DNA of 64,000 nt from Candidatus Omnitrophota bacterium. GTDB lineage: Bacteria; Omnitrophota; Gorgyraeia; Zapsychrales; Aceulaceae. Below, piece after piece: positions 9,453 through 24,600 of the stretch. A model generated the notes under the pieces. The model saw only the letters and a program-made list of their open reading frames with translations. It did not search any database and was not told the DNA's origin. Position numbers and translations under genes: made by a program. The stretch covers positions 4,603-68,602 of the forward strand of contig JAKQPK010000075.1 of NCBI GenBank assembly GCA_029564765.1, written 5' to 3'. The stretch's first letter is position 1; each line of letters starts with the position of its first letter.

Positions 9453-9927
9453 GTTGGCCATTTATCCAGGCACGTTTGACCCCATCACATATGGGCATAT
9501 CGATATTATCGCGAGAACTCGCCGTCTTTTTCCACAGGTTGTCGTTGCGGTCGCTCAAACATCCCGCAAGAATTTACTTTTTGATATTGATGAACGCGTA
9601 CGCATGGTCCGTCAGGCCGTCAAGGGCTTATCCGGGGTTCGCGTTGAAGCGTTCAACGGCCTCGTGGTAGATGTCGCGAAAAAATACGATACGAATATCC
9701 TGATCCGTGGATTGAGGATGGTATCGGACTTTGAGTATGAATTTCAGATGGCCTTAACTAATCGCCGTTTGGCTGGCAAGGTCGAGACTGTTTTCTTGAT
9801 GCCGTCCGAACAATATTCGTTTATTTCATCGACCTTGCTCAAAGAAGTCGCGCGTCTTGGGGCGGACATCTCAACGCTTGTGCCAAAGCATGTCGAGAAA
9901 AAGCTTAAGGCAAAGCTTGCATCATGA
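9442..9927 (+). CDS. coaD: Phosphopantetheine adenylyltransferase
   Basis: 'AIYPGTFDPITYGHIDII' is the nucleotidyltransferase H/T-x-G-H motif. Length 161 aa. Confidence 0.9.
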   Translation: MMSRLAIYPGTFDPITYGHIDIIARTRRLFPQVVVAVAQTSRKNLLFDIDERVRMVRQAVKGLSGVRVEAFNGLVVDVAKKYDTNILIRGLRMVSDFEYEFQMALTNRRLAGKVETVFLMPSEQYSFISSTLLKEVARLGADISTLVPKHVEKKLKAKLAS

Positions 9928-10340
9928 AATTTGATATTCGCAGTATTTCTTCGACAGGATGTGCTGTTGAAGGTTTCTTGAAACAAGAAGATTTTTGTGT
10001 TCGTATTCATGAGATCGAATGCCTTGCGCCTATTCAGCTTTCCGGCAGAATAGAAAAAACTTCAGCAATGGTCAGAGCGCAGATCAATGTAAAAACAGTC
10101 TTTCGTTATATATGTGGCCGCTGCCTAGAAACGTGTGATAAAGAGTTTTGTGAGCATCTTGATCTTCATTATCCTGTTGAGTCGCAAGAGAACTACATTG
10201 ATATCGGCGAAGATGTTCGCCAGGAGATCCTGCTGGGATTCCCGGACCGCGTCGTGTGTCAAGACCAATGCAAGGGCTTGTGTCCAAGGTGCGGCGTGAA
10301 TTTAAATCAGGAACAGTGCGGGTGCGGAAAGAATGAGTAA
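9924..10340 (+). CDS. yceD: DUF177 / YceD-family protein (large-subunit ribosomal accumulation protein), located upstream of rpmF
   Basis: Conserved position before rpmF-plsX. CxxC...CxxC pattern 'CGRCLE...CPRCGVNLN'. Confidence 0.7.
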   Translation: MKFDIRSISSTGCAVEGFLKQEDFCVRIHEIECLAPIQLSGRIEKTSAMVRAQINVKTVFRYICGRCLETCDKEFCEHLDLHYPVESQENYIDIGEDVRQEILLGFPDRVVCQDQCKGLCPRCGVNLNQEQCGCGKNE

Positions 10341-10492: not shown

Positions 10493-10690
10493 ATGCCATT
10501 ACCAAAAAGACAACATTCTAAGCAGCGTGGACGTAAGCGTCGCACGCATTGGAAGATCGCGATGCCGAATCTAAGCGTTTGCGGCCAGTGCGGTAAACAG
10601 GTTTTGCCGCATCGCGTTTGTCCTTTTTGCGGATCTTACAAAGGACAACAAGTTATTGTCATTAAGACAAAAGAGAAGAAAAAGAAATAG
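10493..10690 (+). CDS. rpmF: 50S ribosomal protein L32
   Basis: 'MPLPKRQHSKQRGRKRRTHWK...CGQCGK...CPFCG'. Confidence 0.9.
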   Translation: MPLPKRQHSKQRGRKRRTHWKIAMPNLSVCGQCGKQVLPHRVCPFCGSYKGQQVIVIKTKEKKKK

Positions 10691-10821: not shown

Positions 10822-11808
10822 ATGAACATTATTGTCGACGCGATGGGCGGGGATCATGCTCCGCGAGAAATTGTCGATGGAGCGATCCAGGCGGTTAACG
10901 AATTCAACGTTAACATAACGTTTACGGGCGTTGAAGCCAAGATCCGAGCTGAGTTAGCCAAGTACGATTATCCGAAGGAAAAGATCAAGATCATCCATAC
11001 CGATGAAGTCGTGGATATGCACGATCCGGCTACCACCTCGATCCGCAAGAAGAAAAATTCTTCCATTTCTTTGGGTATCAATCTTCTGAAAGAATCCACA
11101 ACCTATAACGCGTTTATTAGTGCCGGCAACACGGGAGCGGTCGTGTGCGCGGCCACATTCTTGCTGGGAATGCTTCCGGGCGTGGAGCGTCCTGCTATTG
11201 GCCTTGTCATCCCAACCTTAAATAAATTTTCTTTCTTAATCGATGTGGGCGCCAATACAGACCCGAAGCCGGAGCATTTATTGCAGTCCGCGATCATGGC
11301 AAAGGTATACGCTCAAGAAGTCATGGGCATCAACGATCCGCGCATTGGTTTGCTGAATATTGGCGCCGAAGAAAGCAAGGGGACGGATTTCGTCAAAGAC
11401 GCGCATAAACTTTTTCTGGAGCGTTTGTCCAATTTTGCTGGCAATGTCGAAGCTAATGAGATTTTTGCGGGCCGCTGTGACTGTATCATTTGCGATGGCT
11501 ATGTCGGTAACGTAGTCATCAAGATCTCAGAAAGCCTGATGGAGTCCGCCTTAACGTTGATCCGGCGTGAGGTCAAAAAAAGTCCTATGTCTATGCTGGG
11601 AGCCATGCTCATGCGTGGATGCATGCGTGATATCAAGAAGCACGCGGATTATACCGAATACGGCGGCGCACCGCTTTTGGGTGTCAACGGCCTTGTGATG
11701 ATCAGTCATGGGCGCTCAAACGCGAAAGCTATTAAGAACGCGATCCGGGCGACGATCCACGAGATCGAAAACAATGTCATTGACCATATCATTCAAGAGG
11801 TTGTCTAA
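10822..11808 (+). CDS. plsX: Phosphate acyltransferase PlsX
   Basis: 'IVDAMGGDHAP', 'SAGNTGA', and the conserved yceD-rpmF-plsX-fabH-fabD operon context. Confidence 0.9.
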   Translation: MNIIVDAMGGDHAPREIVDGAIQAVNEFNVNITFTGVEAKIRAELAKYDYPKEKIKIIHTDEVVDMHDPATTSIRKKKNSSISLGINLLKESTTYNAFISAGNTGAVVCAATFLLGMLPGVERPAIGLVIPTLNKFSFLIDVGANTDPKPEHLLQSAIMAKVYAQEVMGINDPRIGLLNIGAEESKGTDFVKDAHKLFLERLSNFAGNVEANEIFAGRCDCIICDGYVGNVVIKISESLMESALTLIRREVKKSPMSMLGAMLMRGCMRDIKKHADYTEYGGAPLLGVNGLVMISHGRSNAKAIKNAIRATIHEIENNVIDHIIQEVV

Positions 11809-12788
11809 TGACGCCTGTCCAGATCACTGCTGTTGGCCATTATGTTCCTTCCCGCAAGTTGACCAATGCTGATCTTGAGAAGATAGTCGATACATCTGAT
11901 GAGTGGATCGTCACGCGCACAGGCATCAAAGAGCGCCGCATTGCCGGCGAGCACGAAAAAACAAGCCATTTAGCGATCGAGGCTGCCCGCCAAGTTTTAC
12001 ACAACGCCAAGATCGCCGCGAGCAAGATCGACCTGATTATCGTCGCGACAACGTCCCCAGACAGTAATTTTCCTTCTGTCGCATGCCTTGTTCAAAAAGC
12101 CTTGGGCGCAAGATCCGCGATTGCTTTTGATGTGTCAGCTGCTTGCACAGGATTTATTTACGCGATCTCAGTGGCGCATCAATTTTTATTGGCGAAAACA
12201 TACAAGAATGCTCTTGTGATCGCCGCGGACCGTTTGACGACCATGATCGACTGGCAAGATCGCAATACATGTGTTTTGTTCGGTGATGGGGCGGGGGCGT
12301 GCCTGCTGGAGTCCGGGGATAAAAAGGGGATCTTAGCAGAACATCTTGAAAGCTACGGTGAGTATGGTGAGCTGATGAAGATCATCGTTCCTGAAACACG
12401 GCACCCTTTAAAACCAAAGCATGCAAATGGAGTTTTACCTTATATTCAGATGCAAGGGCCTGAGCTATTTAAGATCGCGGTTAATTCGATGGCGGACTGC
12501 GTCGAGAAAGCCTTGGAAAAAGCCAAGATCACGATCAGCGAGGTGGCGTGCGTTGTGCCTCATCAGGCCAACGACCGTATCATCAGCGCGGTCGCGAAAA
12601 AGCTGGACATCCCTAAGGAGAAGTTTTTTATCAATATCGAGAAGTATGGCAATATGTCAGCAGCTTCAGCAGCGGTAGCGCTTTTTGAAGCAGTTGAGTT
12701 GGGGCGTATTCGCAAAGGCGATTACGCGGTCTTGGTCGCGTTCGGGGCAGGGCTTGTCGCTGGTGCGATCGTCATCAAATGGCAATAA
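11808..12788 (+). CDS. fabH: 3-oxoacyl-ACP synthase III
   Basis: 'GHYVPSRKLTNADLEKIVDTSDEWIVTRTGIKERR', active-site Cys 'AACTGF', 'HQANDRII'. Its ATG overlaps the plsX stop. Confidence 0.9.
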   Translation: MTPVQITAVGHYVPSRKLTNADLEKIVDTSDEWIVTRTGIKERRIAGEHEKTSHLAIEAARQVLHNAKIAASKIDLIIVATTSPDSNFPSVACLVQKALGARSAIAFDVSAACTGFIYAISVAHQFLLAKTYKNALVIAADRLTTMIDWQDRNTCVLFGDGAGACLLESGDKKGILAEHLESYGEYGELMKIIVPETRHPLKPKHANGVLPYIQMQGPELFKIAVNSMADCVEKALEKAKITISEVACVVPHQANDRIISAVAKKLDIPKEKFFINIEKYGNMSAASAAVALFEAVELGRIRKGDYAVLVAFGAGLVAGAIVIKWQ

Positions 12789-12801: not shown

Positions 12802-13728
12802 ATGATAAATGTGGCATTGATTTTTCCAGGTCAGGGCGCTCAAAAGGTGGGCATGGGAAAGGAGTTGTACGATGCGATCCCAGCGGCCAAAGCTATTTTT
12901 GATTCTGCTCAGGCAACACTCGGCAATGACCTTCTTGATGTTATTTTTAATGGGCCCCAGGAAAAGCTGACACTTACATCCTACTCACAGCCGGCGATCG
13001 TTTCTTGCAGTATCGCAGGATTAAAGGCGCTTCAAGCGCATCCGAAATTTGGCGAGCTGAAGATCGCTTTTACGGCTGGACTTAGCTTGGGGGAATATTC
13101 GGCCTTGATCGCATCTGGAGCGCTCTCTTTTGAGGATGGTATTCGCTTGGTGCAAAAACGCGGCGCTTTTATGGATGAAGCCTGCAAGCTGCAACAAGGT
13201 GCCATGGCGGCCATTATCGGATTTCCTAAGGACAGGCTCAAAGAGATCTGCCGCGAAACCGGAGCGCAAGTCGCTAACTTTAATTCTCCAGAACAGATCG
13301 TCATTACAGGTCATGCTGACAAGGTCCAGGCTGCTGTTTCCGCGATCGAAAAAGAAAATCCAAAGAATATCGTTATGCTTGAAGTGGCCGGAGGATTTCA
13401 TTCAAGCCTGATGAAGTCTGCCGCGGAAAAGTTTTCTGCGGAGCTTTCAAAATTTAATTTGCAGACATTGAGCATCCCCCTCGTTGGCAACGTCAAAGGT
13501 GTGGCCGAAACAGATCCTGAAATCATCCGCCAAAACCTGCCTTTACAGATCACCTCATCTGTTCTCTGGGAAGATTCTGTCCGTTTTATGGCCGCGCAAG
13601 GTGTGAAGTATTTCATTGAGATCGGCCCTGGCAAGATCCTCAAAGGCCTTATTCGTCGTATCGATCCTACGTTAACTGTCTTTAACATTGAGAAGCCGCA
13701 GGATATAGAAACAGTATTTAGCATTTAG
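12802..13728 (+). CDS. fabD: Malonyl-CoA:ACP transacylase
   Basis: 'ALIFPGQGAQKVGMG', active-site 'GLSLGEYSAL'. The ATG at 12802 is chosen over the ORF-track's upstream extension at 12685, which overlaps fabH. Confidence 0.9.
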   Translation: MINVALIFPGQGAQKVGMGKELYDAIPAAKAIFDSAQATLGNDLLDVIFNGPQEKLTLTSYSQPAIVSCSIAGLKALQAHPKFGELKIAFTAGLSLGEYSALIASGALSFEDGIRLVQKRGAFMDEACKLQQGAMAAIIGFPKDRLKEICRETGAQVANFNSPEQIVITGHADKVQAAVSAIEKENPKNIVMLEVAGGFHSSLMKSAAEKFSAELSKFNLQTLSIPLVGNVKGVAETDPEIIRQNLPLQITSSVLWEDSVRFMAAQGVKYFIEIGPGKILKGLIRRIDPTLTVFNIEKPQDIETVFSI

Positions 13729-13877
13729 TCTTTAGTGTTTAGCTTTTGCCGACCTATCGAAATACTGTTTGAAGATACTAGATATTTTTCATTTTTCCCG
13801 CCAAAGATTTTCCATATTTTTAATGAATCACTGATATAAACTATGTATACTAATATATATTTATATATAAGGACGTT

Positions 13878-14312
13878 ATGCCTTGCCTTGGGACCAAAGA
13901 AATAGAAGCGATCCTGCCACAGAAATACCCATTTCTGCTCATTGATAGGGTTTTAGATTACAAAGAAGATGACTATCTTGTTGCTATTAAGAATATCACG
14001 GGTAACGAATGGAGTTCTGTTGACAGCGTCAGCCAGCTTGAATGTTGGCCGGAGATGTTGGCTGTAGAAGGAGCTTTGCAGGCTGCAATTATTTTGTATC
14101 ATAAAAGTAAGAATTTCCCCGGAGAGACTCCGGTATATTTTATTGGAAAAGTTATTTCTGAGTTTTATTGCTTACCTAAAATTGGTGATTCTTTAAATAT
14201 TGTAGTTTCCGCAGAAAAGCTAATGCGCATTGGTGGATATGCGCGTATCGATTTAAAGAATCAAAAAGAAAGAATTTCCAGCATCGAAATCTTTTTTAGC
14301 GTAAAGAGATGA
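13878..14312 (+). CDS. FabZ/FabA-like hotdog-fold 3-hydroxyacyl-ACP dehydratase. First gene of a low-GC coupled module
   Basis: 'LPQKYPFLLIDRVL' matches the FabZ N-terminal signature. 144 aa. Preceded by a ~150-bp AT-rich gap. Its stop overlaps the next start. Confidence 0.7.
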   Translation: MPCLGTKEIEAILPQKYPFLLIDRVLDYKEDDYLVAIKNITGNEWSSVDSVSQLECWPEMLAVEGALQAAIILYHKSKNFPGETPVYFIGKVISEFYCLPKIGDSLNIVVSAEKLMRIGGYARIDLKNQKERISSIEIFFSVKR

Positions 14313-15538
14313 TTAAACAAAAAAAAGACGAACGACGTGTCGTGGTCACAGGCTTAGGCGTTGTTTCGTCTATTGGTATTGGCTGGCAGGAATTCTGGAA
14401 AAACCTTCTCGCTGGAAAATCCGGTATCAGCAAGATCACTTCATTTGACACATCCTCCTACGACCGTCACTATGGCGGTGAAGTCAAAGATTTTAATCCC
14501 TATAAATTTATTGATAAGCGAAAAGCGGACCGTATGGGCCGGGCTTCACAGATGGCTATTGCTAGCTGTAATCTTGCATTATCTGACGCAGATTTCTCTT
14601 TTGCAAGAGTTGGCAGAAGAAAGGTGGGGGTTTTTATCGGTACCACAACAGGAGAAATTGCACGCCTAGAGCAATACTACAAGACTTGGCATAGCACGAA
14701 CAAAAAAATACCAGTTCCTATGAACCTAATTACTTTTCCAACCTATTGCCTAAGCTCACATGTTAGTAGATATTTTCGGCTTTCTGGACCAAGCGTGGTT
14801 TTTTCTAATGCATGCGCTGCCGGGAATTATGCCATTGGTTACGCGTATGATTTGATAAAGAATGGGCGTATTGAACTTGCTATCGCTGGCGGAGTTGATG
14901 GCATTTCAAATATTGTGTTTACTGGCTTTAGTCGTTTATTAGCTATAGCTCCAGAAAAATGTCAACCTTTTGATAAGGATAGAAAAGGGATGATTCCTGG
15001 GGAGGGGTCTGGAATTCTTTTTCTGGAGAATTTAGATAGCGCATTAAAGAGAAAAGCTAGAATCTATGCTGAAATTTATGGATATGGTCTTTCTTGCGAT
15101 GGCCATCATATGACAAGCCCTTCTCCTGACGGAGTAGTTCTTTCAATAAAGAAATGTTTAGATGCTTCAGGAGTCTGTTGCGATGCTGTAGATTATGTCA
15201 GCGCTCATGGGACCGGTACAATAGAGAATGATCGATTGGAATGCCAAGCTATAAAAACTATTTTTGGGGCACGGCGGAGAAAAATTCCCGTATCATCTAT
15301 TAAGTCTATGATTGGTCATTGCATGGGAGCATCTTCTGCGATAGAGGCGATTACATGTTGTCTTGCGATAAAAGATCAAAAGATTCCACCAACAATTGGT
15401 TTTAACGAAAAAGATCCTGATTGTGATATTGATTGCGTTCCAAATAAATCCCGAGAAGCAAAAGTAGGCGTTGTTTTGAACAATTCGCTAGCATTTGGTG
15501 GTAATAACGCTAGCTTGCTATTAGGAAAAAGAAAATGA
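14309..15538 (+). CDS. Beta-ketoacyl-ACP synthase (KAS I/II-like condensing enzyme)
   Basis: Catalytic triad context 'SNACAAGNYAIGYA', 'SAHGTGT', 'GHCMGASS'. 409 aa. Overlaps its neighbours by 4 nt. Confidence 0.8.
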   Translation: MIKQKKDERRVVVTGLGVVSSIGIGWQEFWKNLLAGKSGISKITSFDTSSYDRHYGGEVKDFNPYKFIDKRKADRMGRASQMAIASCNLALSDADFSFARVGRRKVGVFIGTTTGEIARLEQYYKTWHSTNKKIPVPMNLITFPTYCLSSHVSRYFRLSGPSVVFSNACAAGNYAIGYAYDLIKNGRIELAIAGGVDGISNIVFTGFSRLLAIAPEKCQPFDKDRKGMIPGEGSGILFLENLDSALKRKARIYAEIYGYGLSCDGHHMTSPSPDGVVLSIKKCLDASGVCCDAVDYVSAHGTGTIENDRLECQAIKTIFGARRRKIPVSSIKSMIGHCMGASSAIEAITCCLAIKDQKIPPTIGFNEKDPDCDIDCVPNKSREAKVGVVLNNSLAFGGNNASLLLGKRK

Positions 15539-16950
15539 ATGATGAAAGATATCAGGTAATCATTATTGGGGCTGGAATTGGTGGCCTAGTTTCTGGATGT
15601 CTTCTTGCGCTTGCAAAGAAGAAGGTTTTAATTGTCGAAAAGAATGATGTTCCAGGAGGATACTGCACATCGTTTAAGCAATTTGGTCTGCATTTCGATA
15701 CTTGTGCCCATTCATTGGGAGATTTATCGAAGCAAGGCAAGTTGTTTGCGATACTAAATAAGATTGGAGTCTTAGAAAAGGTAAAGAGAGTCCGGTACGA
15801 TCCAGGAGACATCATTGTCACAGAAGATTTTGAAGTGTGTTTTAATAATTCTTTGGATAAGACAATAAGAAATCTTTCAAGCATTTTTCCAAAAGAAAAA
15901 GAAGCAATTTCTGCATTCTTTAAGAATATTGTATGTCGACAAGATTTTGTTCAGGCAATGCAGCTTCATAAACAAACTTTTAGCATGCTTCTTGATGATT
16001 ATTTTGTTGATTTGCGACTTAAGAAAATTTTAGGTCTTTTTCCGCTTGGAAATCTCGGAACTCCGGCAAACCACGTCTCAGCGTTTATTGCCGTGAAACA
16101 TTTCAAGCAATTCATTGTTGATGGAGGTTATTATTTATCTAGGGGGATGGATGATTTACCAAGAGCTTTGATGCGGCGCTTCACAGCTCTTGGCGGAAAG
16201 CTTAGCTTTGGATCAGAGGTTGCCTCGGTGAAATGCAGAAATAATACAGCTGTAGGGATTATTTTACGAAATGGTCGTGAATTTTCTGCAGATTTTATTA
16301 TTTCTGCTTGCGACCTAAAGAGTGTTTTCATGAGAATGTTAACTGATTTGAAAACAAGGAAGCGTGCAAAAAATATTATTCGAGAAATGCAGCCATCCCT
16401 TTCTTTATTTGTTGCGCATGTTGTATTGAAAAAGAAGCTATGCAATTCTTATTCTCCTGGGACAAATGTCTGGCGTCTTCGTAATTATGAATATGATCGA
16501 GTGCATAAACGGCAAATTAATTATTCTGATATGTCTGTAGGGTGGATAATGCTTAGAATTGGTATCAGAAAAAAGACTGTAACGCTATTTACGAACGCTC
16601 CTTATCGGGGTAGTTCGTTTTGGAGGAGGAATAGGGTTGATTTCTTTAGCAGAATCCTAAAATTAGCCTCAGATGTAGTCCCTGGAATAGATAACAATGT
16701 AAAATCAGTTCAGCTTTTAACTCCTTTTGGGCTAAACAAGATGACTGGAAATTATAATGGTGCAGGATATGGATGGGCCAGCACTCCGAATCAGTCTTTT
16801 GTAGCTGACCTCTTAAGCGACGGAGTCGCTAAGAACCTTTTTTTATCTGGTCATTGGGGTTCAGTTGCCCAGGGAATCCCTGGAGTGGCTATTGCAGGAG
16901 AGCGTGTTTCAAGAATAATTTTAGCTAGAATGAAAAATGTCAAGATCTAA
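15535..16950 (+). CDS. FAD/NAD(P)-dependent oxidoreductase of the phytoene-desaturase/amine-oxidase (CrtI-like) family
   Basis: Rossmann motif 'VIIIGAGIGGLVSGCLLA...VLIVEKNDVPGG'. About 470 aa, typical CrtI/RetSat-family length. Confidence 0.7.
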   Translation: MNDERYQVIIIGAGIGGLVSGCLLALAKKKVLIVEKNDVPGGYCTSFKQFGLHFDTCAHSLGDLSKQGKLFAILNKIGVLEKVKRVRYDPGDIIVTEDFEVCFNNSLDKTIRNLSSIFPKEKEAISAFFKNIVCRQDFVQAMQLHKQTFSMLLDDYFVDLRLKKILGLFPLGNLGTPANHVSAFIAVKHFKQFIVDGGYYLSRGMDDLPRALMRRFTALGGKLSFGSEVASVKCRNNTAVGIILRNGREFSADFIISACDLKSVFMRMLTDLKTRKRAKNIIREMQPSLSLFVAHVVLKKKLCNSYSPGTNVWRLRNYEYDRVHKRQINYSDMSVGWIMLRIGIRKKTVTLFTNAPYRGSSFWRRNRVDFFSRILKLASDVVPGIDNNVKSVQLLTPFGLNKMTGNYNGAGYGWASTPNQSFVADLLSDGVAKNLFLSGHWGSVAQGIPGVAIAGERVSRIILARMKNVKI

Positions 16951-18235
16951 TAATCGAAAAAAAGTTGTGGTAACTGGCTTAGGACCAATTACATCAGTTG
17001 GAATTGGAGCTGATGCATTATGGCAATCGCTTTTTGAGGGAAAAACGGACATTGTTGAACATAAGCATATTTTGTCAGGGGAGCTAATTGATACCTTTCC
17101 TTTGCATATGATTCAATCGTTTAATCTCGATGATTTTAAGATTCCTGAGAATGGGCTGAAATCTATACGAGACTGGAAAAAAGACGCTATAGATAGAGAG
17201 TTGAGTCTTTTTCTTGCTTCAATTAAGGTTGCTCTTGACGATAGCAAAATAAAAAATTCTTATCGTAAGGATATCGGTTTTGTTTTTACTCAAGAAATGC
17301 CAGGGGTAGAAGATTTTTTTGAAAAGGTCATCATAAAGACAATTAATTTTAGTCGTACAGGTAAAAAAATGACACACAAAAATGTTAGCGAATACTTGTA
17401 TGAAGCATGCGAGGCCCAGGGATACGATCTCCAGACTTTTATGTATATATATTTTGCCCTAAAGTGTTTTGGTTGCCACGGATATTCTTTATTTATCAAC
17501 AATGCATGTGCATCAGGATCCTATGCGATTGAAGAAGCTGCTCGGATTATTCGTTCTGGCCATCAGAAAATTATAATTGTTTCCGGGGGAGACTCTCCGA
17601 TAAAATCTTTTAAATATAATTGGTTTAAAAAGCGTGGCCTGTACTCTAGCGATGGTCTTGTAAGACCATTTTGTCGTAACTCTAATGGAATTGTTTTTGG
17701 TGAAGGCGTTTCATCTCTGGTATTGGAAGATTTTGATCATGCAAAAAAGCGTGAAGCTAAGATTTACGCGGAATATCTTGGAGGGGGTTTTTCACAGGAA
17801 GCATGGAAGGTGACATTGCCAAATATCACCGAGAATTTCTATTTGTCAGCCTTTCAGAAAGGACTTAAGGAGTCGAAAGTTGATATTTCGGAAATCGATT
17901 TTGTTAATGCCCATGGGGTAGGCATTAAAATTACTGACAATTATGAGGCTCGTACGATTAAGAAAGTTTTTAGCAGGTTAAAGAATAAGCCTTTAGTTAC
18001 CGCGTTTAAACCTTACATTGGTCATAATTTAGGTGGGAGCAGCTTGATCGAGAGCGTGATATCTATACTTTGTTTAAAAAACAATTGTATTCTGCCAACT
18101 TTAAATACGGAAGATTATGATGAAAATCTTGGGATAAATCTTGCAAGAGAGAAAGTTGAGAAAGATTTACGCATTTTTGCAAAGATGTCGTGTGGTTTTG
18201 CTGGGTTTAATTCGGTTATTTTCTTTAGAAAGTAA
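16937..18235 (+). CDS. Second beta-ketoacyl-ACP synthase-like protein (divergent KAS)
   Basis: 'NNACASGSYAIEEAARII' (Cys retained), 'NAHGVG', 'GHNLGGSS'. Overlaps the upstream gene by 14 nt. Confidence 0.7.
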   Translation: MSRSNNRKKVVVTGLGPITSVGIGADALWQSLFEGKTDIVEHKHILSGELIDTFPLHMIQSFNLDDFKIPENGLKSIRDWKKDAIDRELSLFLASIKVALDDSKIKNSYRKDIGFVFTQEMPGVEDFFEKVIIKTINFSRTGKKMTHKNVSEYLYEACEAQGYDLQTFMYIYFALKCFGCHGYSLFINNACASGSYAIEEAARIIRSGHQKIIIVSGGDSPIKSFKYNWFKKRGLYSSDGLVRPFCRNSNGIVFGEGVSSLVLEDFDHAKKREAKIYAEYLGGGFSQEAWKVTLPNITENFYLSAFQKGLKESKVDISEIDFVNAHGVGIKITDNYEARTIKKVFSRLKNKPLVTAFKPYIGHNLGGSSLIESVISILCLKNNCILPTLNTEDYDENLGINLAREKVEKDLRIFAKMSCGFAGFNSVIFFRK

Positions 18236-18241
18236 TTATCC

Positions 18242-20434
18242 ATGGCTCAATCATTTAGTTTATTGCGAATACTTTTTATCTTATCTGGCCTTACGCTGTC
18301 CCTAACCTGTTTCGCGCTTCTTTTTATAATTTTAAAATTTGGAAGAACCAAATTAACAAAAGTTTGGGCTTGTTTTAATTTATCAGTCTTTGTTTGGGGA
18401 TTAGGTGTTTCGATGATTGGGTTTGCGAAAAATGATAGCGAAGCTTGGTTAGCTTGGAAGATTGGTCATGCGGGAGCGATTTTTATTGCTGGAACGTTCT
18501 TTCACGTCGTCAGCGTCCTGACTGATAAGGGGTTGCGGCGCTTTATCGCAGTTGTTTATAGCTATTCTTGTGTTTTCTTGCTTTTGAATATCCTAGATCA
18601 ACTTAATATCAGTATCATTGAAAAATTTGATGGAATATATTTTATATTTCCAGAAAACTTTTTGTACCCATTCTTAATTACAGCTTGGGTGGTAATCGTT
18701 TTATTTGCATTCATTATTTTAATACAATCTTTGCGGACTGTCAGCCAAAGATTATACAATCAGCTTCGGTATTTTCTGATTGGGACGACAGTCGGATTTC
18801 TTGGCGGTCTTAGCAATTTTCTCCCAATGTTTAATGTAAACATTTATCCTTTAGGAAATTTTTTGATATCATTTTATTGTTGTTTCTGCAGCTATGCAAT
18901 CTTGAGGCATCGCCTTATGGATGTCAGCATTGCGATAACTCGGACGGGGATTTTTGTTTTAGTCTATTCGCTCGTTCTTGGCATCCCTTTTGCCATCGCT
19001 TTCGGACTGAAAGATTATTTATTTTCTATTCTTGGAAATATTTGGTGGATTATTCCTTTATTTGCCTCAACCATGCTGGGCACTGCTGGGCCATATCTTT
19101 ATTTCTTTATCCAGCGCAAGGCAGAAGAAAAGTTATTAGCCGACCAAAAGCGCTACCAATCGACCTTAAAGCAAGCGTCGGCAGGCATGACGCGTATCAA
19201 GGACCTAAAAAAGCTTTTAAATTTGATCGTCTATATTCTCTCTAGAACGGTTAATCTAACGCATGCATCTCTGTATCTCTACAATCCAAAAAGTCGTGAC
19301 TATACCCTTGAGGCTGTGAGAGGCGAGAAGCTTTCGAAGAAGAATTATTACATTAGCCGTCGCTGTGCGTTGATTGATTATCTGGAAAAAGCAAAGCTGC
19401 CTATCGTAGCTGAAGAGATCAAGCAGCAAAGTCAAGATTACAACAATGAAAACTTGAAAGAAGTCTACGCGCAGCTTAAGGAAATTGGCGCGGAAGTTGC
19501 TGTTCCGATCCTTACGGAAAAGCGCTTGTTGGCAATAGGTGTTCTCGGTAAAAAAAATACAGGATCGATGTATACACCGGATGACTTGACAGTTTTCTCA
19601 ATTCTGGCAAGCCAGGTCGCGCTTGCTATCGAAAACGCTCAGTTCTACGAAGAGTCCAAACAGACCCAGGAACAACTTTTCCAGGCGGAAAAAATGGCGA
19701 CGATCGGCACGATGGCTGACGGCCTGTCACATCAGATCAATAATCGTCTACATACGCTTGGCTTTATTGCCGGAGACGCTTTGGACACCATCAACCTGAG
19801 CAAGGATGTTCAGGATCCTTCAAGGTTCCAGTCGATCTTGGCCGAAATATCCAAAGCACTTGTAAAGATCCAGGAAAATGTCCGTCAAGGCGGCGAGATC
19901 GTTCAAGGATTATTGCGCTATACGCGAAAAGGCCAGGAAGGCTTTGGGGAGGTGGTCTTTGACAAGCTTGTCGATGAAGTTGTTGAGATGGCGCAATTCA
20001 AGATCAAAAAAGAATATGTGGCGATCGTTAAGGACTATCCTCAAGATCTGCCTGGGATCCATGGGAATTTTACGCAGCTGCAAGAAGTCTTTTTTAATAT
20101 CATTGATAACGCGTATGACGCGATCATGCAAAAGAAACATGAGATCGCGGATGAAAATTTTAGCGGCAAGATCAAGATCTCAACTCGCCAGACCGAGAAA
20201 TTTTTGGAGGTCAATGTTCTCGATAACGGCATGGGCGTTAAAGAAGATGACCAGACAAAGCTCTTTACACCATTTTTCACGACAAAAGTGTCAAGTCGTA
20301 AAGGTACGGGATTGGGGCTTTATGTGATCAAGAAGATCGTTGAAGACAACCATCAGGGAGAAGTCTTCATTTCCTCCGAACATAAAGTAGGGACATTGTT
20401 CATTGTCAGGCTACCGATAGGAAAGAAGGGATAA
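18242..20434 (+). CDS. Sensor histidine kinase with a polytopic (7TM-type) N-terminal sensor, a GAF-like region, and HisKA/HATPase
   Basis: About seven N-terminal TM helices. H-box 'DGLSHQINNRLHTL', N-box 'FFNIIDNAYDA', G-box 'GTGLGLYVIKKIV'. Confidence 0.8.
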   Translation: MAQSFSLLRILFILSGLTLSLTCFALLFIILKFGRTKLTKVWACFNLSVFVWGLGVSMIGFAKNDSEAWLAWKIGHAGAIFIAGTFFHVVSVLTDKGLRRFIAVVYSYSCVFLLLNILDQLNISIIEKFDGIYFIFPENFLYPFLITAWVVIVLFAFIILIQSLRTVSQRLYNQLRYFLIGTTVGFLGGLSNFLPMFNVNIYPLGNFLISFYCCFCSYAILRHRLMDVSIAITRTGIFVLVYSLVLGIPFAIAFGLKDYLFSILGNIWWIIPLFASTMLGTAGPYLYFFIQRKAEEKLLADQKRYQSTLKQASAGMTRIKDLKKLLNLIVYILSRTVNLTHASLYLYNPKSRDYTLEAVRGEKLSKKNYYISRRCALIDYLEKAKLPIVAEEIKQQSQDYNNENLKEVYAQLKEIGAEVAVPILTEKRLLAIGVLGKKNTGSMYTPDDLTVFSILASQVALAIENAQFYEESKQTQEQLFQAEKMATIGTMADGLSHQINNRLHTLGFIAGDALDTINLSKDVQDPSRFQSILAEISKALVKIQENVRQGGEIVQGLLRYTRKGQEGFGEVVFDKLVDEVVEMAQFKIKKEYVAIVKDYPQDLPGIHGNFTQLQEVFFNIIDNAYDAIMQKKHEIADENFSGKIKISTRQTEKFLEVNVLDNGMGVKEDDQTKLFTPFFTTKVSSRKGTGLGLYVIKKIVEDNHQGEVFISSEHKVGTLFIVRLPIGKKG

Positions 20435-20459
20435 AGGGGCAAAGGACTAAAGGGTTAAA

Positions 20460-20852
20460 GTGATTGAAAAAAGAAAATTGAAAACATATAAAGATCTTAT
20501 TGCTTGGCAGAAGTCTTACAGTTTGTGCTTAGAAATATATCGGGCAACGAAGATATTCCCGCAATCTGAACAATATGGCCTGACCGCACAAATGAAGCGA
20601 AGCGCCCTTTCCGTTCCGTCAAATATTGCTGAAGGGTATGTGCGGCACGGAACGCGAGACTATATTCGTTTTCTTTATATCGCTTACGCTTCGCTTGCAG
20701 AACTAGAAACACAATTGCTTCTTGCAAAAGATTTGGGATATATTAAATCTGATGACTTTAAGCAGATCATTGGTCTGCAAAACGAGGTTCAGAGGGTTAT
20801 GCGCGGGCTAATCGAGTCGCTTAAATCAAGATCTTCACAAAATGCCCTGTAA
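20460..20852 (+). CDS. Four-helix-bundle protein (23S rRNA intervening-sequence protein family)
   Basis: 'YKDLIAWQKSYSLCLEIYRATKIFPQSEQYGLTAQMKRSALSVPSNIAEGY' is the canonical family signature. Flanked by the 11-bp IR 'agggataaagg'/'cctttatccct'. Confidence 0.85.
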   Translation: MIEKRKLKTYKDLIAWQKSYSLCLEIYRATKIFPQSEQYGLTAQMKRSALSVPSNIAEGYVRHGTRDYIRFLYIAYASLAELETQLLLAKDLGYIKSDDFKQIIGLQNEVQRVMRGLIESLKSRSSQNAL

Positions 20853-20899
20853 TCCTATGATCCTTTATCCCTGTAATCCTATTAATATAAGGACTGCCT

Positions 20900-21259
20900 A
20901 TGCCAAAACTACTTATTGTTGATGATGAAACGGATATCACGGAGTTCGCGAAGCATTTCTTCGAGAAGCGGGGGATCGAGGTAATTACAGCTTCAGGAGG
21001 TCAGGAAGCACTGGATCTGATAAGCTTAAGCAATCCTGATCTCACGCTTTTGGATGTGCGCATGGGAGAGGTTACAGGTGTTGATGTCTTGCGTAAACTT
21101 CGCGAATCAGGTAATATGATGAAAGTTGTCATGGTAACTGGCGTAGAGGATCCCGCTATTATTAAGCAAGCACAAGATCTGGGCATAAGCGGTTTTATAC
21201 ATAAACCCTTAGCCTTGGATGAATTAGAGCGGGTTGTGATGAAGGAATTAGAAGGATAA
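20900..21259 (+). CDS. Stand-alone response-regulator receiver (CheY-like)
   Basis: 'LLIVDDE...D', 'LLDVRMGEVTGVDVL', 'VVMVTG'. 119 aa. Confidence 0.85.
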   Translation: MPKLLIVDDETDITEFAKHFFEKRGIEVITASGGQEALDLISLSNPDLTLLDVRMGEVTGVDVLRKLRESGNMMKVVMVTGVEDPAIIKQAQDLGISGFIHKPLALDELERVVMKELEG

Positions 21260-21333
21260 AAAGTATTTAGTCGATAGTCGTTAGTATTTAGCGCGCTGAC
21301 ACCAGATACTATATACCAACAACTGACACAGCT

Positions 21334-22539
21334 ATGTCACTCAATTACAAAAAAGAACTCGAACGTGCAAGCCGTGTTATGATCCGGATCCATGATCCGA
21401 GCATCTTGATACGTTTGATCATTCGCTTGATCGTGCGCAAGGTTGACGTTAAGCACGCTGGCGTTTTGTTGTTTGACGCTAACCGCGATTGCTACGTTCT
21501 TACTCTCTCAGGCGGGGAGAGCGGGACCCGTATCCCGCAGGGGTTCGCGAAATTTGTTAAAGAAAACCCATTGATCAAATTCTTCGTTGATAAAGAATAT
21601 CAATCGCTTATAAGGCGCCATGGGGCTTTGACCATCGAAGAACTTAACCGCATGATCTGGAGCGAAAATGTCTTGCCGCAGAATGAACAGCATAAAGATT
21701 TCTTGCACAAGATCGCTCAGCAGATGGAGATGTTCAATGTAGCGGTCTGTATCCCAGCGTATTTTCGTGAGCATCTTGTAGCGCTTTTGCTTCTTGGCGA
21801 AAAGACAAACGGACATGTTTATCAGCAGGAAGAGTTTGATTTTCTAGCGGCGCTGTCTTCGGATGTTGCCATGGCCATTCAGAACGCGCGGCTTATTGAG
21901 GATTTGCGCAAAGAAGTTGAGAAGAATAAAGCGCTTTTTATCAACACCGCTCTTTCACTTGCTTCGGCCATAGAGGCTAAAGACCGTTACACACGTGGCC
22001 ATACAGAGCGTGTTACAAAATACGCGTTAGCGATTGCCGATGAGCTTGTACACAACCGCGCCTTTCCTCTTTCGAAAAATTTCTCTGAGGATCTGTACAT
22101 TGCGTCTTTGTTGCATGATGTAGGGAAAATAGGCGTTCCTGAGAGCATCTTGAGCAAAGAAACAGGCCTTACGGACCAGGAATTCCAGCAGATACGTCTA
22201 CATCCGCTAAGAGGAGCCGATATTTTAAAAGCTATTCCGGAATTTGAAGAGTGCCTTAAGGGTGTTAAATATCACCACGAGCGCTATGATGGCCGAGGCT
22301 ATCCGGAGGGCTTAAAAGGCGAAGAGATCCCGCTCGTTGCTGCCATTGTCGCTGTCGCGGATAGCTATGACGCGATGACCTCTGATCGAACTTACCGCAA
22401 AGCCATGTCCAAGGACGCTGCTATAAGCGAGATCGAGAAAAATATAGGTATTCAATTTCATCCGGTGGTGGCAAAGGCGTTTTTGGAGGTGTTGAGGAAA
22501 AGCGAAAAAGAGTTAATAAAAGTTACAAATGGTTACTAG
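21334..22539 (+). CDS. HD-GYP domain phosphodiesterase with N-terminal GAF-like region
   Basis: 'HTERVTKYALAIADEL', 'HDVGKIGVPESIL', 'HHERYDGRGYPEGLKGEEIP'. Confidence 0.85.
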   Translation: MSLNYKKELERASRVMIRIHDPSILIRLIIRLIVRKVDVKHAGVLLFDANRDCYVLTLSGGESGTRIPQGFAKFVKENPLIKFFVDKEYQSLIRRHGALTIEELNRMIWSENVLPQNEQHKDFLHKIAQQMEMFNVAVCIPAYFREHLVALLLLGEKTNGHVYQQEEFDFLAALSSDVAMAIQNARLIEDLRKEVEKNKALFINTALSLASAIEAKDRYTRGHTERVTKYALAIADELVHNRAFPLSKNFSEDLYIASLLHDVGKIGVPESILSKETGLTDQEFQQIRLHPLRGADILKAIPEFEECLKGVKYHHERYDGRGYPEGLKGEEIPLVAAIVAVADSYDAMTSDRTYRKAMSKDAAISEIEKNIGIQFHPVVAKAFLEVLRKSEKELIKVTNGY

Positions 22540-22661
22540 GGGTTACGCTTAAAGCGCGTCTTCCATCTTCCTTCACGGTCTAATTTATATAATGCGTCAA
22601 TAAACCTGTCCATTTGAAAGCATGCGGTTTTGATGAGCGTTGTTATTTTCTTATGGTCTTC

Positions 22662-22934
22662 TTACGGGATCAGGTTATCTTCAAGGCAATCATCCATATC
22701 GCCTCCTAGTTCTTCCAGCGAACCTCTGCTGATTTTGATGGAATGTGCGAATTCACCAACGCTATCTTTTGCATAGCCCTCGCGGATATTCTGCTTTGCG
22801 CTTCTGGCCGCATCGCATATTTGACTTACCAGTCGCAGTCGCGACTTTTGGAAGGCCCCTGTCATTTTATTGATAAGACGCCTGATCTCGCAAACATTCT
22901 TGTAAAATTCCAGATTTTCGTAGGCTCGACCCAT
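22662..22934 (-). CDS. Four-helix-bundle protein (IVS-protein family), short member. The start is uncertain because the ORF extends to 23018 and overlaps the kinase gene's end
   Basis: 'NIREGYAKDSVGEFAHSIKISRGSLEELGGDMD' family-type C-terminal half. Confidence 0.6.
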   Translation of the reverse strand: MGRAYENLEFYKNVCEIRRLINKMTGAFQKSRLRLVSQICDAARSAKQNIREGYAKDSVGEFAHSIKISRGSLEELGGDMDDCLEDNLIP

Positions 22935-22983: not shown

Positions 22984-24600
22984 TCATCTTTTCTTCTTCT
23001 TTCCCGGCAATTCCACAATAAACTTTGTCCCTACTCCCGGCTTGCTTTCCACTAAAATCTTCCCACCATGATCTTTGATGATGCGTTGGGTGATTGAAAG
23101 ACCCAGACCGACACCATGGTCTTTTTTGGTGTAGAAGGGGTCAAAGACGTTTTTTAGGTCTTTTTTAGCGATCCCTGTTCCTGTGTCTTCGATAGATAAC
23201 CGCACATGATCGTTAACTCTATCTACGCTCACTGATAATCTGCCGCCTCTATTCATCGCGTCGATCGCGTTAATAAATATATTCAAGAACGCTTGGCGTA
23301 ATCGGTTTGCATCGGCCGTAAGGCGTATGTTCGCAGAGGGGCTGTAGTTTTGATCGACCGTGATGCTGTGCTTGATAAATTTGCTGCTTAGAAATGCCAG
23401 GGTGTTATCAATGAGGCTTGCCAGATCAACCTCTTTAAGCTGAAGAGGGGATGGCTTAGCAAATTCAAGCAGTTCATGCACCAGGTTATCAATACGTTCC
23501 ACTTCGTGTCCGACAATGCGGGAGAAATTACTCAAGAATTCCTTATCATTCATTTTGCGCGGGAGATATTCTGCAAAGGTTTTGATCGCAGTAAGAGGAT
23601 TTTTGATCTCATGAGCGATGCCGCTTGCAAGAATGCTTATGGATTTTAGCTTTTCAGTCTGCTCGACCTCTTGTTTAAGTCGTTCATTCTCTTTCATGAT
23701 CTCTTCGTGCGTGCCGTGGAAGAATATTCTGTCTATTATTAGATTAATGAAGTTTCGCAGGGGAAAAAATATGATTCCGATAACAAATGATATAGAAACG
23801 CTAAGAATTAAAGATTTGTATCCAACGATCCCCTTGAGAAAGTTTTCGAACAGGATGATGGCAAGAAAGTAGAGAAATGAAATTATAGTTATTAAGACCG
23901 AGTAGACAATACTCTTCTTAATTACAATATTTATATCGAGGAAATGATATTTAAATATGATGTGAGTTATTATAAAAGGTGGTACTAAAATTGCAAAATT
24001 TCCATATGGGTAAATATTTATTCCATACCCCGGTAGAAAATCAAGAGTTCCTCCAGCGAAACCAATGCACGATAGAATCAATCCGAGAATCTGGCTTTTT
24101 TGTTCAACATAAACATTTTTCCAGTATTTGATTAGCAAAAAGTATCCAGCCGAGACAACAGTGAGCCAAGTGATAAACGATAAAGTGTAGTAAGCGCTCC
24201 CTTGATGATAATAGAAAGAATTAAACATAAATTTTGTTGTTGGAAACATTTTATTGTTAACTATGGTGTAGAGAAAATAAAAAGCTTGTCCGTAAATTGC
24301 TATTAGGAGAATTTTTCTTTCTTTTTTAATGAGAATTAAGACTGAATGAAGAAAGAAGACTGCAATAAAGAGTGCTGACGGATAAGCAATTTTCCATATT
24401 GTGAAGGAAAAATTCTGGCTTGTATTAATCCCAATAAAAAAGGATCCAATGCCCCACATGGCGATTGAAAGAATGTGGAAGGAGTAGACAATCGAAAGCT
24501 TTGATTTATTATTGATTAAGATTAGGATGAAAAGAGGAAAATATGCAAACGCAATCAATAATCCTGATATCGCAAAAGGATTTAAGCGGGAAAGGTCCAT
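22984..24600 (-). CDS. Sensor histidine kinase with a 7TM-type N-terminal membrane sensor
   Basis: About seven TM helices, coiled coil, H-box 'SGIAHEIKNPLTAI', 'GVGLGLSITQRII'. N-terminal domain architecture resembles that of the kinase at 18242. Confidence 0.8.
   Translation of the reverse strand: MDLSRLNPFAISGLLIAFAYFPLFILILINNKSKLSIVYSFHILSIAMWGIGSFFIGINTSQNFSFTIWKIAYPSALFIAVFFLHSVLILIKKERKILLIAIYGQAFYFLYTIVNNKMFPTTKFMFNSFYYHQGSAYYTLSFITWLTVVSAGYFLLIKYWKNVYVEQKSQILGLILSCIGFAGGTLDFLPGYGINIYPYGNFAILVPPFIITHIIFKYHFLDINIVIKKSIVYSVLITIISFLYFLAIILFENFLKGIVGYKSLILSVSISFVIGIIFFPLRNFINLIIDRIFFHGTHEEIMKENERLKQEVEQTEKLKSISILASGIAHEIKNPLTAIKTFAEYLPRKMNDKEFLSNFSRIVGHEVERIDNLVHELLEFAKPSPLQLKEVDLASLIDNTLAFLSSKFIKHSITVDQNYSPSANIRLTADANRLRQAFLNIFINAIDAMNRGGRLSVSVDRVNDHVRLSIEDTGTGIAKKDLKNVFDPFYTKKDHGVGLGLSITQRIIKDHGGKILVESKPGVGTKFIVELPGKKKKR

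Follow-up and report, generated by a model that had tools for sequence, protein, structure and literature searches.

An acyl-chain gene module beside a hypervariable 7TM sensor kinase in an Omnitrophota genome, and its relation to anammox Cluster I

The four overlapping genes considered here, at positions 13878-18235 of a 64,000-nucleotide stretch of a Candidatus Omnitrophota genome (GenBank assembly GCA_029564765.1, contig JAKQPK010000075.1, positions 4,603 to 68,602; this whole stretch is called the window), encode a hotdog-fold protein, two ketoacyl synthases (KAS_A and KAS_B) and a CrtI-like flavoprotein, and they are followed by the gene of a histidine kinase with a seven-transmembrane (7TM) and a GAF domain. 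Their closest described relatives belong to Cluster I of the anammox bacteria (Kuenenia kuste3603-3608), a proposed ladderane cluster composed of the acyl carrier protein (ACP) amxACP, amxFabZ, amxFabF2, amxFabFmut, the flavoprotein PDH and a B12 radical-SAM enzyme. In the anammox system, amxFabF2 and the triad-less amxFabFmut form a heterodimer like that of a ketosynthase (KS) and its chain-length factor (CLF), with Iga11/12 cited in the same preprint (10.64898/2026.05.19.726425), which is evidently the source of structure 9s5h. The anammox papers describe Cluster I as exclusive to ladderane producers, and Rattray et al. found similar clusters only in a few Deltaproteobacteria. Our analyses nevertheless identified homologues of four of the six Cluster I proteins (FabF2, FabFmut, FabZ and PDH) in the Omnitrophota genome, and a single cluster including an ACP in many Nitrospirota. 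As in Cluster I, a PDH-like flavoprotein is part of the same cluster and no enoyl reductase (ER) accompanies it; amxFabF2, amxFabFmut and amxFabZ are the closest solved relatives of, respectively, KAS_A and the CLF-like protein and FabZ encoded on another contig (C30), and the CLF-like protein has lost its triad exactly as amxFabFmut has. Unlike the contiguous Cluster I, the unit is split over two loci, of which the window holds only the FabF2-like, PDH-like and a His-less FabZ-like gene, with neither a radical-SAM nor an ACP gene; it includes an extra active KS (KAS_B), its flavoprotein gene is followed by that of a 7TM histidine kinase, a link absent from the descriptions in the anammox papers, and its hosts are Omnitrophota and Nitrospirota.

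Parts of this arrangement recur in other systems. A KS/CLF pair working with a ketoreductase (KR), a dehydratase (DH) and an ACP but without an ER is the recipe for polyenes in the ishigamide (Iga) and aryl-polyene (APE) systems; the present unit resembles Iga11/Iga12 and the aryl-polyene systems in its KS, inactive CLF, KR, DH and ACP, but has no starter-unit, release or export genes and adds a CrtI-fold flavoprotein and a sensor kinase. The comQXP(A) loci of Bacillus and the agrBDC(A) loci of Staphylococcus are polymorphic pheromone/receptor loci whose signals are ribosomal peptides. Like them, the present locus combines a hypervariable modifying enzyme and membrane sensor domain with a conserved kinase core and response regulator around them, and is mosaic between close relatives; unlike them, it carries lipid or polyketide biosynthetic enzymes and an HD-GYP output, and its signal is putative. 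Signals derived from fatty acids are paired with sensor kinases in Ralstonia (the methyltransferase PhcB with PhcS and PhcR), Vibrio (CqsA-CqsS) and Xanthomonas (RpfF-RpfC and the HD-GYP protein RpfG). As in PhcB-PhcS and CqsA-CqsS, a lipid-modifying gene adjoins that of a multi-pass membrane kinase, some variants having a methyltransferase directly upstream, and as with RpfG an HD-GYP output lies downstream; the likeness is one of gene arrangement, and the present locus differs from the Phc, Cqs and Rpf systems in its KS/CLF-type synthase and its HisKA_7TM-GAF receptor. The anaerobic routes to unsaturated fatty acids (FabA/FabB, FabM and FabX) and the DesK-DesR pair provide a further comparison. 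Here too, a dedicated KS, a hotdog protein and a flavoprotein lie by core fab genes, FabA and a desaturase being absent from the genome, and a membrane kinase stands beside a lipid-modifying gene as in DesK-DesR. On the other hand, the catalytic His is missing from the hotdog protein, the fold of the flavoprotein is that of CrtI rather than NMO, and the key enzyme can be exchanged and varies together with the sensor, which is not predicted by homeoviscous control.

The conserved unit and the co-variation of enzyme and sensor

The four genes are the window half of a conserved, widespread and undescribed unit in which an acyl-chain module is joined to a 7TM sensor kinase. A tblastn search recovered relatives of the flavoprotein (31-41% identity) in 80 loci, mostly from Nitrospirota and Omnitrophota, and the gene-neighbourhood comparison proposed by an earlier, sequence-only reading of the window revealed a recurring unit around them, with the typical order [PilZ-methyltransferase]-KR-CLF-like KAS-FabZ-KAS_A-ACP-flavoprotein-7TM-GAF kinase, which is the gene set of Cluster I with a KR and a kinase added and the radical-SAM enzyme missing. 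KAS_B is an optional member that adjoins the flavoprotein. In the 76 loci with enough downstream sequence, the kinase lies immediately 3' of the CrtI-like gene in 60 and is reached via one gene (KAS_B or a methyltransferase) in 4 more, several of the apparent exceptions being fragmented kinases; the link with the kinase, which had been guessed at from the 6 nt between the KAS_B stop and the kinase start, is thus much stronger than supposed. In Omnitrophota, the kinase is followed by a receiver and an HD-GYP protein, and a small gene for a '23S rRNA intervening sequence (IVS)' protein also recurs; the order of these output genes is the same in L007/L011, L035, G137, G087, G147, G135 and G125. 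In the order of bacteria to which the window belongs, the unit is placed after plsX-fabH-fabD, as also seen in L009, L014, G137, G087 and G147. A literature search on the cluster in Nitrospira and Omnitrophota, on ligands of HisKA_7TM kinases and on KS/CLF systems in these phyla returned nothing relevant. The unit is best classed as a variant of the KS/CLF 'Cluster I-like' systems, with a probably functional and hitherto undescribed coupling to a hypervariable 7TM sensor kinase.

Several observations on these loci bear on their diversity. The first gene of Nitrospirota clusters (e.g. L012:2574-3917) fuses PilZ, a c-di-GMP receptor domain, to a CMAS-like S-adenosylmethionine (SAM) methyltransferase, so that in these clusters, too, the lipid module is tied to c-di-GMP, as it is through the HD-GYP protein in Omnitrophota. 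The gene directly upstream of the closest kinase orthologues encodes a CrtI-like protein, a SAM methyltransferase, a FAR-type reductase, a Rossmann oxidoreductase (once fused to a START domain) or an ICMT/PEMT-type methyltransferase. At L155:3543-4826, a FadL/TodX outer-membrane channel for hydrophobic compounds is encoded two genes upstream of a block of 7TM-GAF kinase, response regulator and HD-GYP genes, with no KS genes nearby.

The exchange of the tailoring enzyme is clearest in a genome of the same genus, G137, which at the same site has plsX-fabH-fabD-hotdog-KAS_A-X-KAS_B-kinase-IVS-response regulator-HD-GYP, where X is an unrelated 383-aa SAM methyltransferase in place of the flavoprotein. 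Protein identity between the two genomes is 79% for PlsX, 80% for FabH, 71% for FabD, 64% for the hotdog protein and 60% for KAS_A; it is absent at X, falls to 39% in KAS_B and returns to 76% in the response regulator and 77% in the HD-GYP protein. Within the kinase, the 7TM domain is 41% identical, whereas the GAF, DHp and CA domains reach 73%, 92% and 82%. At the DNA level, the flanks match at 67-74% and the intervening island (about 15448-18892) is unmatched save for 128 bp. In a second genus (G149 vs G099), an acyl reductase (FAR) is exchanged for a Rossmann oxidoreductase, with 42% identity in the 7TM domain and 83% in the kinase core. Among close pairs of Nitrospirota, the identity trough comprises the flavoprotein and the 7TM domain only, bounded by the ACP (78-88%) and the GAF domain (87-93%); a trough was present in seven of eight independent close pairs.

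The idea that the 7TM domain diverges only where the enzyme families differ was considered and rejected, as pairs of the same family proved equally divergent; this control led to a comparison of enzyme identity with 7TM identity among same-family locus pairs whose kinase cores are at least 62% identical. There, the identity of the tailoring enzyme follows that of the 7TM domain (Spearman 0.81), and the kinase core is related to neither (0.08 for the enzyme and 0.02 for the 7TM domain). For example, L145 and L158 have kinase cores 97% identical but 7TM domains at 36% and methyltransferases at 53%, whereas L145 and L146, with kinase cores at 77%, share 84% of the 7TM domain and 88% of the methyltransferase. 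The slot upstream of the kinase is therefore that of an exchangeable tailoring enzyme, the sequence of which co-varies with the 7TM domain and not with the catalytic core. Joint hypervariability of a modifying enzyme and a sensor domain, with kinase core and regulator conserved, is what characterizes a pherotype locus. A tree of 7TM domains, having long branches and poor resolution, named no donor of the window's cassette.

Catalytic equipment of the module and its partners

KAS_A retains Cys169, His300, Lys332 and His337, the full set (CHKH) in an alignment of catalytic columns. Its best match in the Protein Data Bank (PDB) is 9s5h_B (3e-127), followed by the ishigamide ketosynthase 6kxd (7e-105), with FabF structures at 1e-90 or weaker; it is 36% identical to the genome's own FabF. 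Against TIGR03150 (cut-off 493.75), KAS_A scores 415.8 bits and KAS_B 217.1, compared with 631.6 for the real FabF. By these signatures, KAS_A is an active ketosynthase of the amxFabF2/Iga11 type, and is presumed to be the KS subunit of a KS/CLF pair. The candidate for the other subunit is a 412-aa KAS encoded on C30, in which Phe, Asn and Glu replace Cys, His and His (F-N-K-E at the catalytic columns; F-x-K-E in the C30 type generally) and whose best solved relative is 9s5h_C (2.2e-114). Its gene is flanked by those of a FabG-like ketoreductase and of a FabZ with an intact GHFP motif, whose nearest solved relatives are the anammox FabZ structures 7qv0/8ayb (about 1e-36). In a sample of 151 genomes of the phylum, KAS_A occurs in 24 and the CLF-like gene in 22, all of these among the 24, either adjacent or on different contigs; the CrtI-like gene is present in 14, all of which also carry KAS_A. 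Because of this co-occurrence and of the homology with the solved anammox heterodimer, KAS_A and the C30 CLF-like protein are taken to be a candidate KS/CLF pair, the co-occurrence pointing to the C30 protein, rather than KAS_B, as the partner of KAS_A. The trio of CLF-like, KR and FabZ genes (L091:9074-16236) lies directly downstream of ribBA, ribH, nusB, ribD and ribE on the same strand, and CLF-like orthologues up to 94% identical are abundant in Omnitrophota metagenome data.

KAS_B, which is 30% identical to KAS_A, keeps CHKH, as do all 17 members examined of its group. Together with its 16 relatives, it has HG(V/L/I)G(S/I) for HGTGT and AFAG(F/Y)N for FGGxN, its own motifs being HGVGI and GFAGFN. 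KAS_B is thus classed from its motifs as a second ketosynthase of its own subfamily, with the triad kept and the predicted substrate-handling motifs altered, and as part of the variable cassette.

The hotdog protein reaches 28 bits against PF07977 (cut-off 23), and scores 52.6 bits against TIGR01750 (cut-off 155) and 62 against NF000582 (cut-off 113). Its best PDB relative, 8ayd (1.7e-18), has the catalytic His of GHFP where the window protein has a Ser (SVDSVSQ). This His is also lost in the L014 and L007 orthologues, the latter having an ApeP-like Pfam match, whereas all C30-type FabZs keep GHFP; the catalytic Glu64 is invariant. The window protein is of the FabZ fold and predicted not to be a competent FabZ-type dehydratase; we infer a role in acyl-ACP binding, or a thioesterase- or isomerase-like one.

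The product of the third gene is a CrtI-fold FAD oxidoreductase ('PDH-like') that occupies the exchangeable slot. It scores 80.5 bits against Amino_oxidase, 102.9 against crtI_fam (TIGR02734; cut-off 238) and 94 against a carotenoid isomerase model (cut-off 587), so that it shares with CrtI, CrtD, CrtISO and RetSat the fold and the N-terminal GxGxxG motif but misses all family cut-offs. An AlphaFold2 (AF2) model (pLDDT 87) retrieved 4rep (E 2.5e-30, TM 0.81), 4dgk, which is CrtI (E 6.8e-24), and 3ka7 in Foldseek; the GxGxxG FAD motif is invariant (G12, G14 and G17). The nearest homologue among 5.8 billion proteins is 43% identical, and the family comprises 389 representative clusters at E<=1e-30. 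Its fixed neighbours are KS, ACP and kinase genes, and carotenoid genes are never adjacent. Elsewhere on C30 (L161:6183-9246), the genome has a real carotenoid cluster with a phytoene/presqualene synthase-like (crtB-like) protein, a CrtI-family desaturase (400 bits) and a lycopene cyclase domain protein, and therefore does not need the window flavoprotein for carotenoids; the true CrtI can be aligned with the latter over 99 residues only, at 29% identity.

It is of note that the genome (a 1.86-Mb assembly, 98% complete) has plsX, fabH, fabD, fabG, acpP, fabF and fabZ but no recognizable FabI/FabL, FabK or FabV, none of its five short-chain dehydrogenases (SDRs) being FabI-like, and that no ER belonging to the unit of acyl module and kinase was found. 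FabA, a membrane desaturase and a FabK/FabX-type NMO protein were likewise not found in the genome. Contig C69 carries the genuine fabG-acpP-fabF genes, C20 encodes an LpxC-FabZ fusion and C61 an orphan ACP. Neither FabI nor a FabK-like gene is present in about half of the 151 phylum genomes. On C18 (L090:9146-17758), a further KS/CLF pair, with CHKH and RDKN in the catalytic columns, is encoded next to an ACP of its own, accompanied by a PF04199 cyclase, an SRPBCC polyketide cyclase, an MFS transporter, a KR-like SDR and an amidohydrolase; from its gene content, this cluster looks like a type II polyketide synthase (PKS)-like system.

These assignments modify the sequence-only reading, which had seen in the four genes a dehydratase, a KAS, a desaturase and a second divergent KAS forming an unusual acyl pathway without KR or ER. 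Profile searches matched the hotdog protein, the two ketoacyl synthases and the amine-oxidase family, with the flavoprotein below the crtI_fam cut-off. The FabA/FabZ-like hotdog fold stands, but with Ser for the FabZ catalytic His the dehydratase does not. KAS_B does belong to its own subfamily with changed motifs, but has not diverged in its Cys-His-Lys-His set. ACP, KR and ER are indeed missing from the Pfam and NCBIfam domain calls of the four genes, and there is no KR within the window, but C30 encodes a ketoreductase of the FabG type, a true dehydratase and a CLF-like partner, which co-occur with KAS_A across genomes; with these partners at C30 and a hotdog protein lacking its His, the idea of a self-contained set fails. 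What remains of the unusual pathway is that it is ER-less, related to the anammox cluster and linked to a kinase.

Locus layout, base composition and neighbouring genes

The module follows yceD-rpmF-plsX-fabH-fabD, which is a housekeeping operon and supplies malonyl-ACP directly upstream (Table 1). As had been noticed from the sequence, it consists of four intact open reading frames (ORFs) after an AT-rich gap, without internal stops and with overlaps of 4, 4 and 14 nt between successive stops and starts, and the CrtI-like gene is no frameshifted pseudogene. The module also occupies the slot where fabG, acpP and fabF usually follow; since the genuine genes are on C69 and not just beyond, this part of the sequence-only reading holds. 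At the closest public locus (L009:4970-6157), a DUF4143/AAA_14 ATPase gene takes the hotdog gene's place between fabD and KAS_A.

Table 1. Positions of the module, its flanking operon and the downstream signalling genes in the window
Feature	Positions	Strand	Basis
DUF177/yceD-like ORF (138 aa, Cys-rich)	9924-10340	+	read from sequence
rpmF (L32-like, 65 aa)	10493-10690	+	read from sequence
plsX	10822-11808	+	NCBIfam score above cut-off
fabH	11808-12788	+	NCBIfam score above cut-off
fabD	about 12808-13728	+	NCBIfam score above cut-off
AT-rich intergenic gap, 149 bp	13729-13877	+	sequence
Hotdog ORF, 144 aa	13878-14312	+	Pfam/NCBIfam FabA/FabZ-like
KAS_A ORF, 409 aa	14309-15538	+	ketoacyl-synt N + C domains
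CrtI-like flavoprotein ORF, 471 aa	15535-16950	+	Amino_oxidase / NAD_binding_8, below crtI_fam cut-off
KAS_B ORF, 432 aa	16937-18235	+	ketoacyl-synt N + C domains
Hypervariable, lowest-GC island (CrtI-like gene, KAS_B, 7TM-coding part of kinase)	about 15448-18892	+	
7TM-GAF histidine kinase, 730 aa	18242-20434	+	HisKA_7TM, GAF, HATPase_c domains
Kinase 7TM domain	about 18242-19111	+	
Kinase GAF domain	about 19139-19651	+	
Kinase DHp/CA domains	19652-20431	+	
Kinase phospho-acceptor His497	19730-19732	+	
'23S rRNA IVS' protein, four-helix bundle	20460-20852	+	Pfam/NCBIfam
Stand-alone receiver (response regulator)	20900-21259	+	Pfam/NCBIfam
GAF-HD-GYP protein	21334-22539	+	Pfam/NCBIfam
Second sensor histidine kinase, convergent	22984-24600	-	NCBIfam AtoS/ZraS-like

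The gap probably holds the module's own promoter. It is partly conserved in the same-genus genome, with conserved blocks on alignment with G137 and G087. Compared between two species of the genus (window vs L110:4029-4284), it shares a ATTTTCCAYATTTT..TGAATC motif and a TATATATA-rich stretch; in G137, the gap before the hotdog gene has a AAATACTAGATACTA motif as a direct repeat. The conserved motifs may be operator or promoter sites. An Rfam search of the gap matched no family, and a promoter and terminator scan of 13400-22800 gave counts no higher than in shuffled controls.

The lower GC of the module relative to the flanking fab genes, also pointed out in the sequence-only reading, is borne out. 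The four genes have a GC content of 0.36-0.41 and a third-codon-position GC content (GC3) of 0.31-0.36, as against a GC3 of 0.49-0.59 for plsX, fabH and fabD; among 1283 long ORFs of this genome (mean GC3 0.493, standard deviation 0.060) they rank within the lowest 0.5-2.6%, so that the composition bias is beyond chance. GC is 0.35-0.39 across the island, with which the composition outlier coincides, and the GC minimum coincides with the stretch unmatched in G137. Recent horizontal acquisition of the whole module, for which the low GC had been taken as a sign, is rejected: G137 has the hotdog, KAS_A, KAS_B and kinase genes at the same site, also with low GC3, and the same-order genomes G087 and G147 share this frame with it. 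Only the stretch of CrtI-like gene, KAS_B and 7TM-coding DNA is exchanged or hyperdivergent in relation to G137.

In the kinase, the phospho-acceptor His and the N, G1 and G2 boxes (H497, N501, N623, D661-G-x-G and G688-x-G-x-G) show no variation among 47 orthologues. The IVS protein between kinase and receiver (bAvd-like) recurs in L035 and G137, the G137 copy being 33% identical, and G137 has a second copy between fabH and fabD. A convergent kinase of 537-555 aa is in the same place in L007, L035 and G137. Shorter (about 540 aa) HisKA_7TM-HisKA-HATPase kinases occur at L014:6322-7947, L160:6685-8340, L035:3014-6272 and L157:1065-7526, located between KAS_A and the tailoring gene or upstream of the module as tandem arrays of two to four. 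Farther downstream in the window, a 2619-aa ORF (29713-37572) with SpvB, TcdB_toxin_midN, FG-GAP and RHS-repeat domains encodes a Tc/Rhs-type polymorphic toxin-like protein. DNA of the organism is present in activated-sludge metagenomes. In four runs labelled as RNA-Seq, short contigs 100% identical to the window cover the hotdog, KAS_A, CrtI-like, KAS_B, kinase and HD-GYP genes, but three of these runs are rated as probably DNA, and no run recorded as RNA carries the module stretch.

Competing explanations and implications

We tentatively favour, as a reading that has nearly as much speaking for it as against it, that the ER-less KS/CLF module makes a modified acyl product which is sensed by the adjacent kinase, with output through the response regulator and the HD-GYP protein. 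According to this model, KAS_A and the CLF, together with ketoreductase and dehydratase, would build a short or medium enoyl acyl-ACP from the malonyl-ACP provided by the upstream FabD; the flavoprotein would alter a C=C bond by desaturation, isomerisation or saturation, KAS_B would condense or extend the modified chain, and the His-less hotdog protein would handle or release it. An oxygen-independent unsaturated acyl product is plausible on the predicted activities. The 7TM domain would recognize the lipid-like product in the membrane, and the kinase would signal through the stand-alone receiver to the GAF-HD-GYP protein, which presumably controls c-di-GMP turnover. The enzyme-plus-sensor cassette would then act as a pherotype-like specificity module, as in comQXP or agrBDC.

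A number of points weigh against this model. Product, ligand and transcript are all unseen, and no enzyme that would obviously release or export a product is encoded in the window's module. KAS_A and the C30 partner genes are unlinked in this genome, so that their joint action is deduced from co-occurrence and homology only, and 7TM-GAF kinases occur in 115 of the 151 phylum genomes but the CrtI-like gene in only 14. As for the co-variation, the locus pairs are not phylogenetically independent, which deprives a p-value of much meaning; fast evolution is common in membrane domains; and since the tailoring gene adjoins the 7TM-coding DNA, a shared tract of recombination or hypermutation could produce the correlation without ligand specificity. 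The unit is also persistently linked to plsX-fabH, in the same direction here and convergently in many Nitrospirota, and the anammox homologues are thought to serve bulk membrane lipid, both of which favour a role in membrane lipids.

Such a role is the most serious alternative, although we consider it unlikely on the whole. Here, the module would provide an unusual bulk phospholipid acyl chain, for instance an unsaturated one made independently of oxygen, under the control of a 7TM kinase that senses the membrane as DesK does; the flavoprotein would serve as a trans-2/cis-3 or cis/trans isomerase or a dehydrogenase, with FabX- or FabM-like logic, and KAS_B or KAS_A would perform FabB-like elongation. 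This is in agreement with the position of the module right after plsX-fabH-fabD in this genome and its order and with the convergent plsX-fabH linkage in Nitrospirota, with the lack of FabA, desaturase and FabK/FabX-type protein described above, with the CMAS-like methyltransferase fused to PilZ in the Nitrospirota versions, and with the high expression of the anammox homologues, which are assumed to be membrane-lipid makers and of which amxFabZ and amxFabF prefer C6-C8 substrates. However, a housekeeping role predicts neither the within-genus swap for an unrelated enzyme nor the co-variation of enzyme and sensor, and it fits poorly with the patchy distribution (14 of 151 genomes for the CrtI-like gene and 24 of 151 for KAS_A) and the extreme codon composition of the module. 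Moreover, the alternative tailoring enzymes (FAR and carboxyl-type methyltransferases) give neutral end products and not phospholipid acyl chains, and the output is an HD-GYP protein rather than a DNA-binding regulator.

It is improbable that a highly reducing type II PKS-like system at the locus makes a pigment or protective lipid of the polyene type, with the flavoprotein adding or isomerising double bonds and the kinase being a regulator only. The ER-less recipe shared with the Iga and APE systems counts for this explanation, as do the rank of the ishigamide ketosynthase as KAS_A's second-best solved relative and the ApeP-like match of the L007 hotdog orthologue. On the other hand, no adenylation or starter-unit enzyme, thioesterase, LolA/MMPL export protein or APE-typical glycosyl- or acyltransferase was seen in the loci, and a pigment role leaves the co-variation of enzyme and 7TM domain unexplained. 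Still less probable is a role of the flavoprotein as a RetSat-like saturase that serves as the missing enoyl-ACP reductase and completes an alternative fatty-acid synthase. The lack of FabI/FabL, FabK and FabV from the genome would fit, and in the Nitrospirota clusters an ER in the flavoprotein's place would make the set complete. This candidate was rejected on the phyletic pattern and the methyltransferase swap in G137: most phylum genomes without FabI and FabK, including G137 itself, also lack the CrtI-like gene; several genomes that carry the CrtI-like gene encode FabI (G033) or a FabK-like protein (G019, G071, G115 and G141) as well; and an essential ER is not expected to be exchanged for a methyltransferase.

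A ladderane-like lipid, to which the sequence-only reading had alluded, is supported in so far as KAS_A and the C30 partners are closest to Cluster I proteins and the genome has six to eight B12-binding proteins elsewhere. With neither a radical-SAM nor an amxACP-like gene in or beside the module, however, a ladderane product is unlikely, and the interchangeable flavoprotein slot and the occurrence of the same core in aerobic Nitrospira and many Omnitrophota, ladderanes being reported from anammox bacteria only, make the chances of such a pathway very slim. Lastly, an ordinary carotenoid desaturase or isomerase lying among fab paralogues by chance, as the CrtI fold and the weak matches to crtI_fam and carotenoid isomerase models might suggest, is excluded for practical purposes by scores far under the cut-offs, the genome's own carotenoid cluster with its barely alignable CrtI, the fixed KS, ACP and kinase neighbours, and the failure of the anammox PDH homologues to replace CrtI in vivo (PMC4790861).

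Taking the loci beyond the window into account, we regard as possible, with considerable reservation, that Nitrospirota and Omnitrophota carry an unrecognized but widespread family of lipid-based, strain-specific signalling systems, in each of which a KS/CLF-DH-ACP core would make the acyl scaffold, a swappable tailoring enzyme (CrtI-fold flavoprotein, methyltransferase or acyl reductase) would decide which chemical form the signal takes, and a co-diversifying 7TM domain would be the cognate receptor, with a c-di-GMP output. If so, the anammox cluster would be a derived offshoot that has gained the radical-SAM enzyme and lost the kinase, and the enzymes shared with anammox bacteria would be open to study in culturable Nitrospira; one of the loci with the cluster, L041, is labelled N. 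japonica. The occurrence of Cluster I homologues outside anammox bacteria separates the ladderane-specific radical-SAM step from a shared and older acyl-building core, and makes culturable organisms available for finding what this core makes. For genome annotation, the label of a 'fab paralogue set' conceals a split KS/CLF system, and the combination of a variable lipid-tailoring enzyme with a co-varying 7TM domain is a genomic signature of a signal/receptor specificity system; it also assigns a testable class of ligand to the uncharacterized family of HisKA_7TM kinases. From an ecological point of view, if the signalling role is confirmed, these systems would add a new chemical class to the cell-cell signals of bacteria, and would do so in two environmentally dominant and poorly cultured phyla, which include the nitrite oxidisers of wastewater plants.

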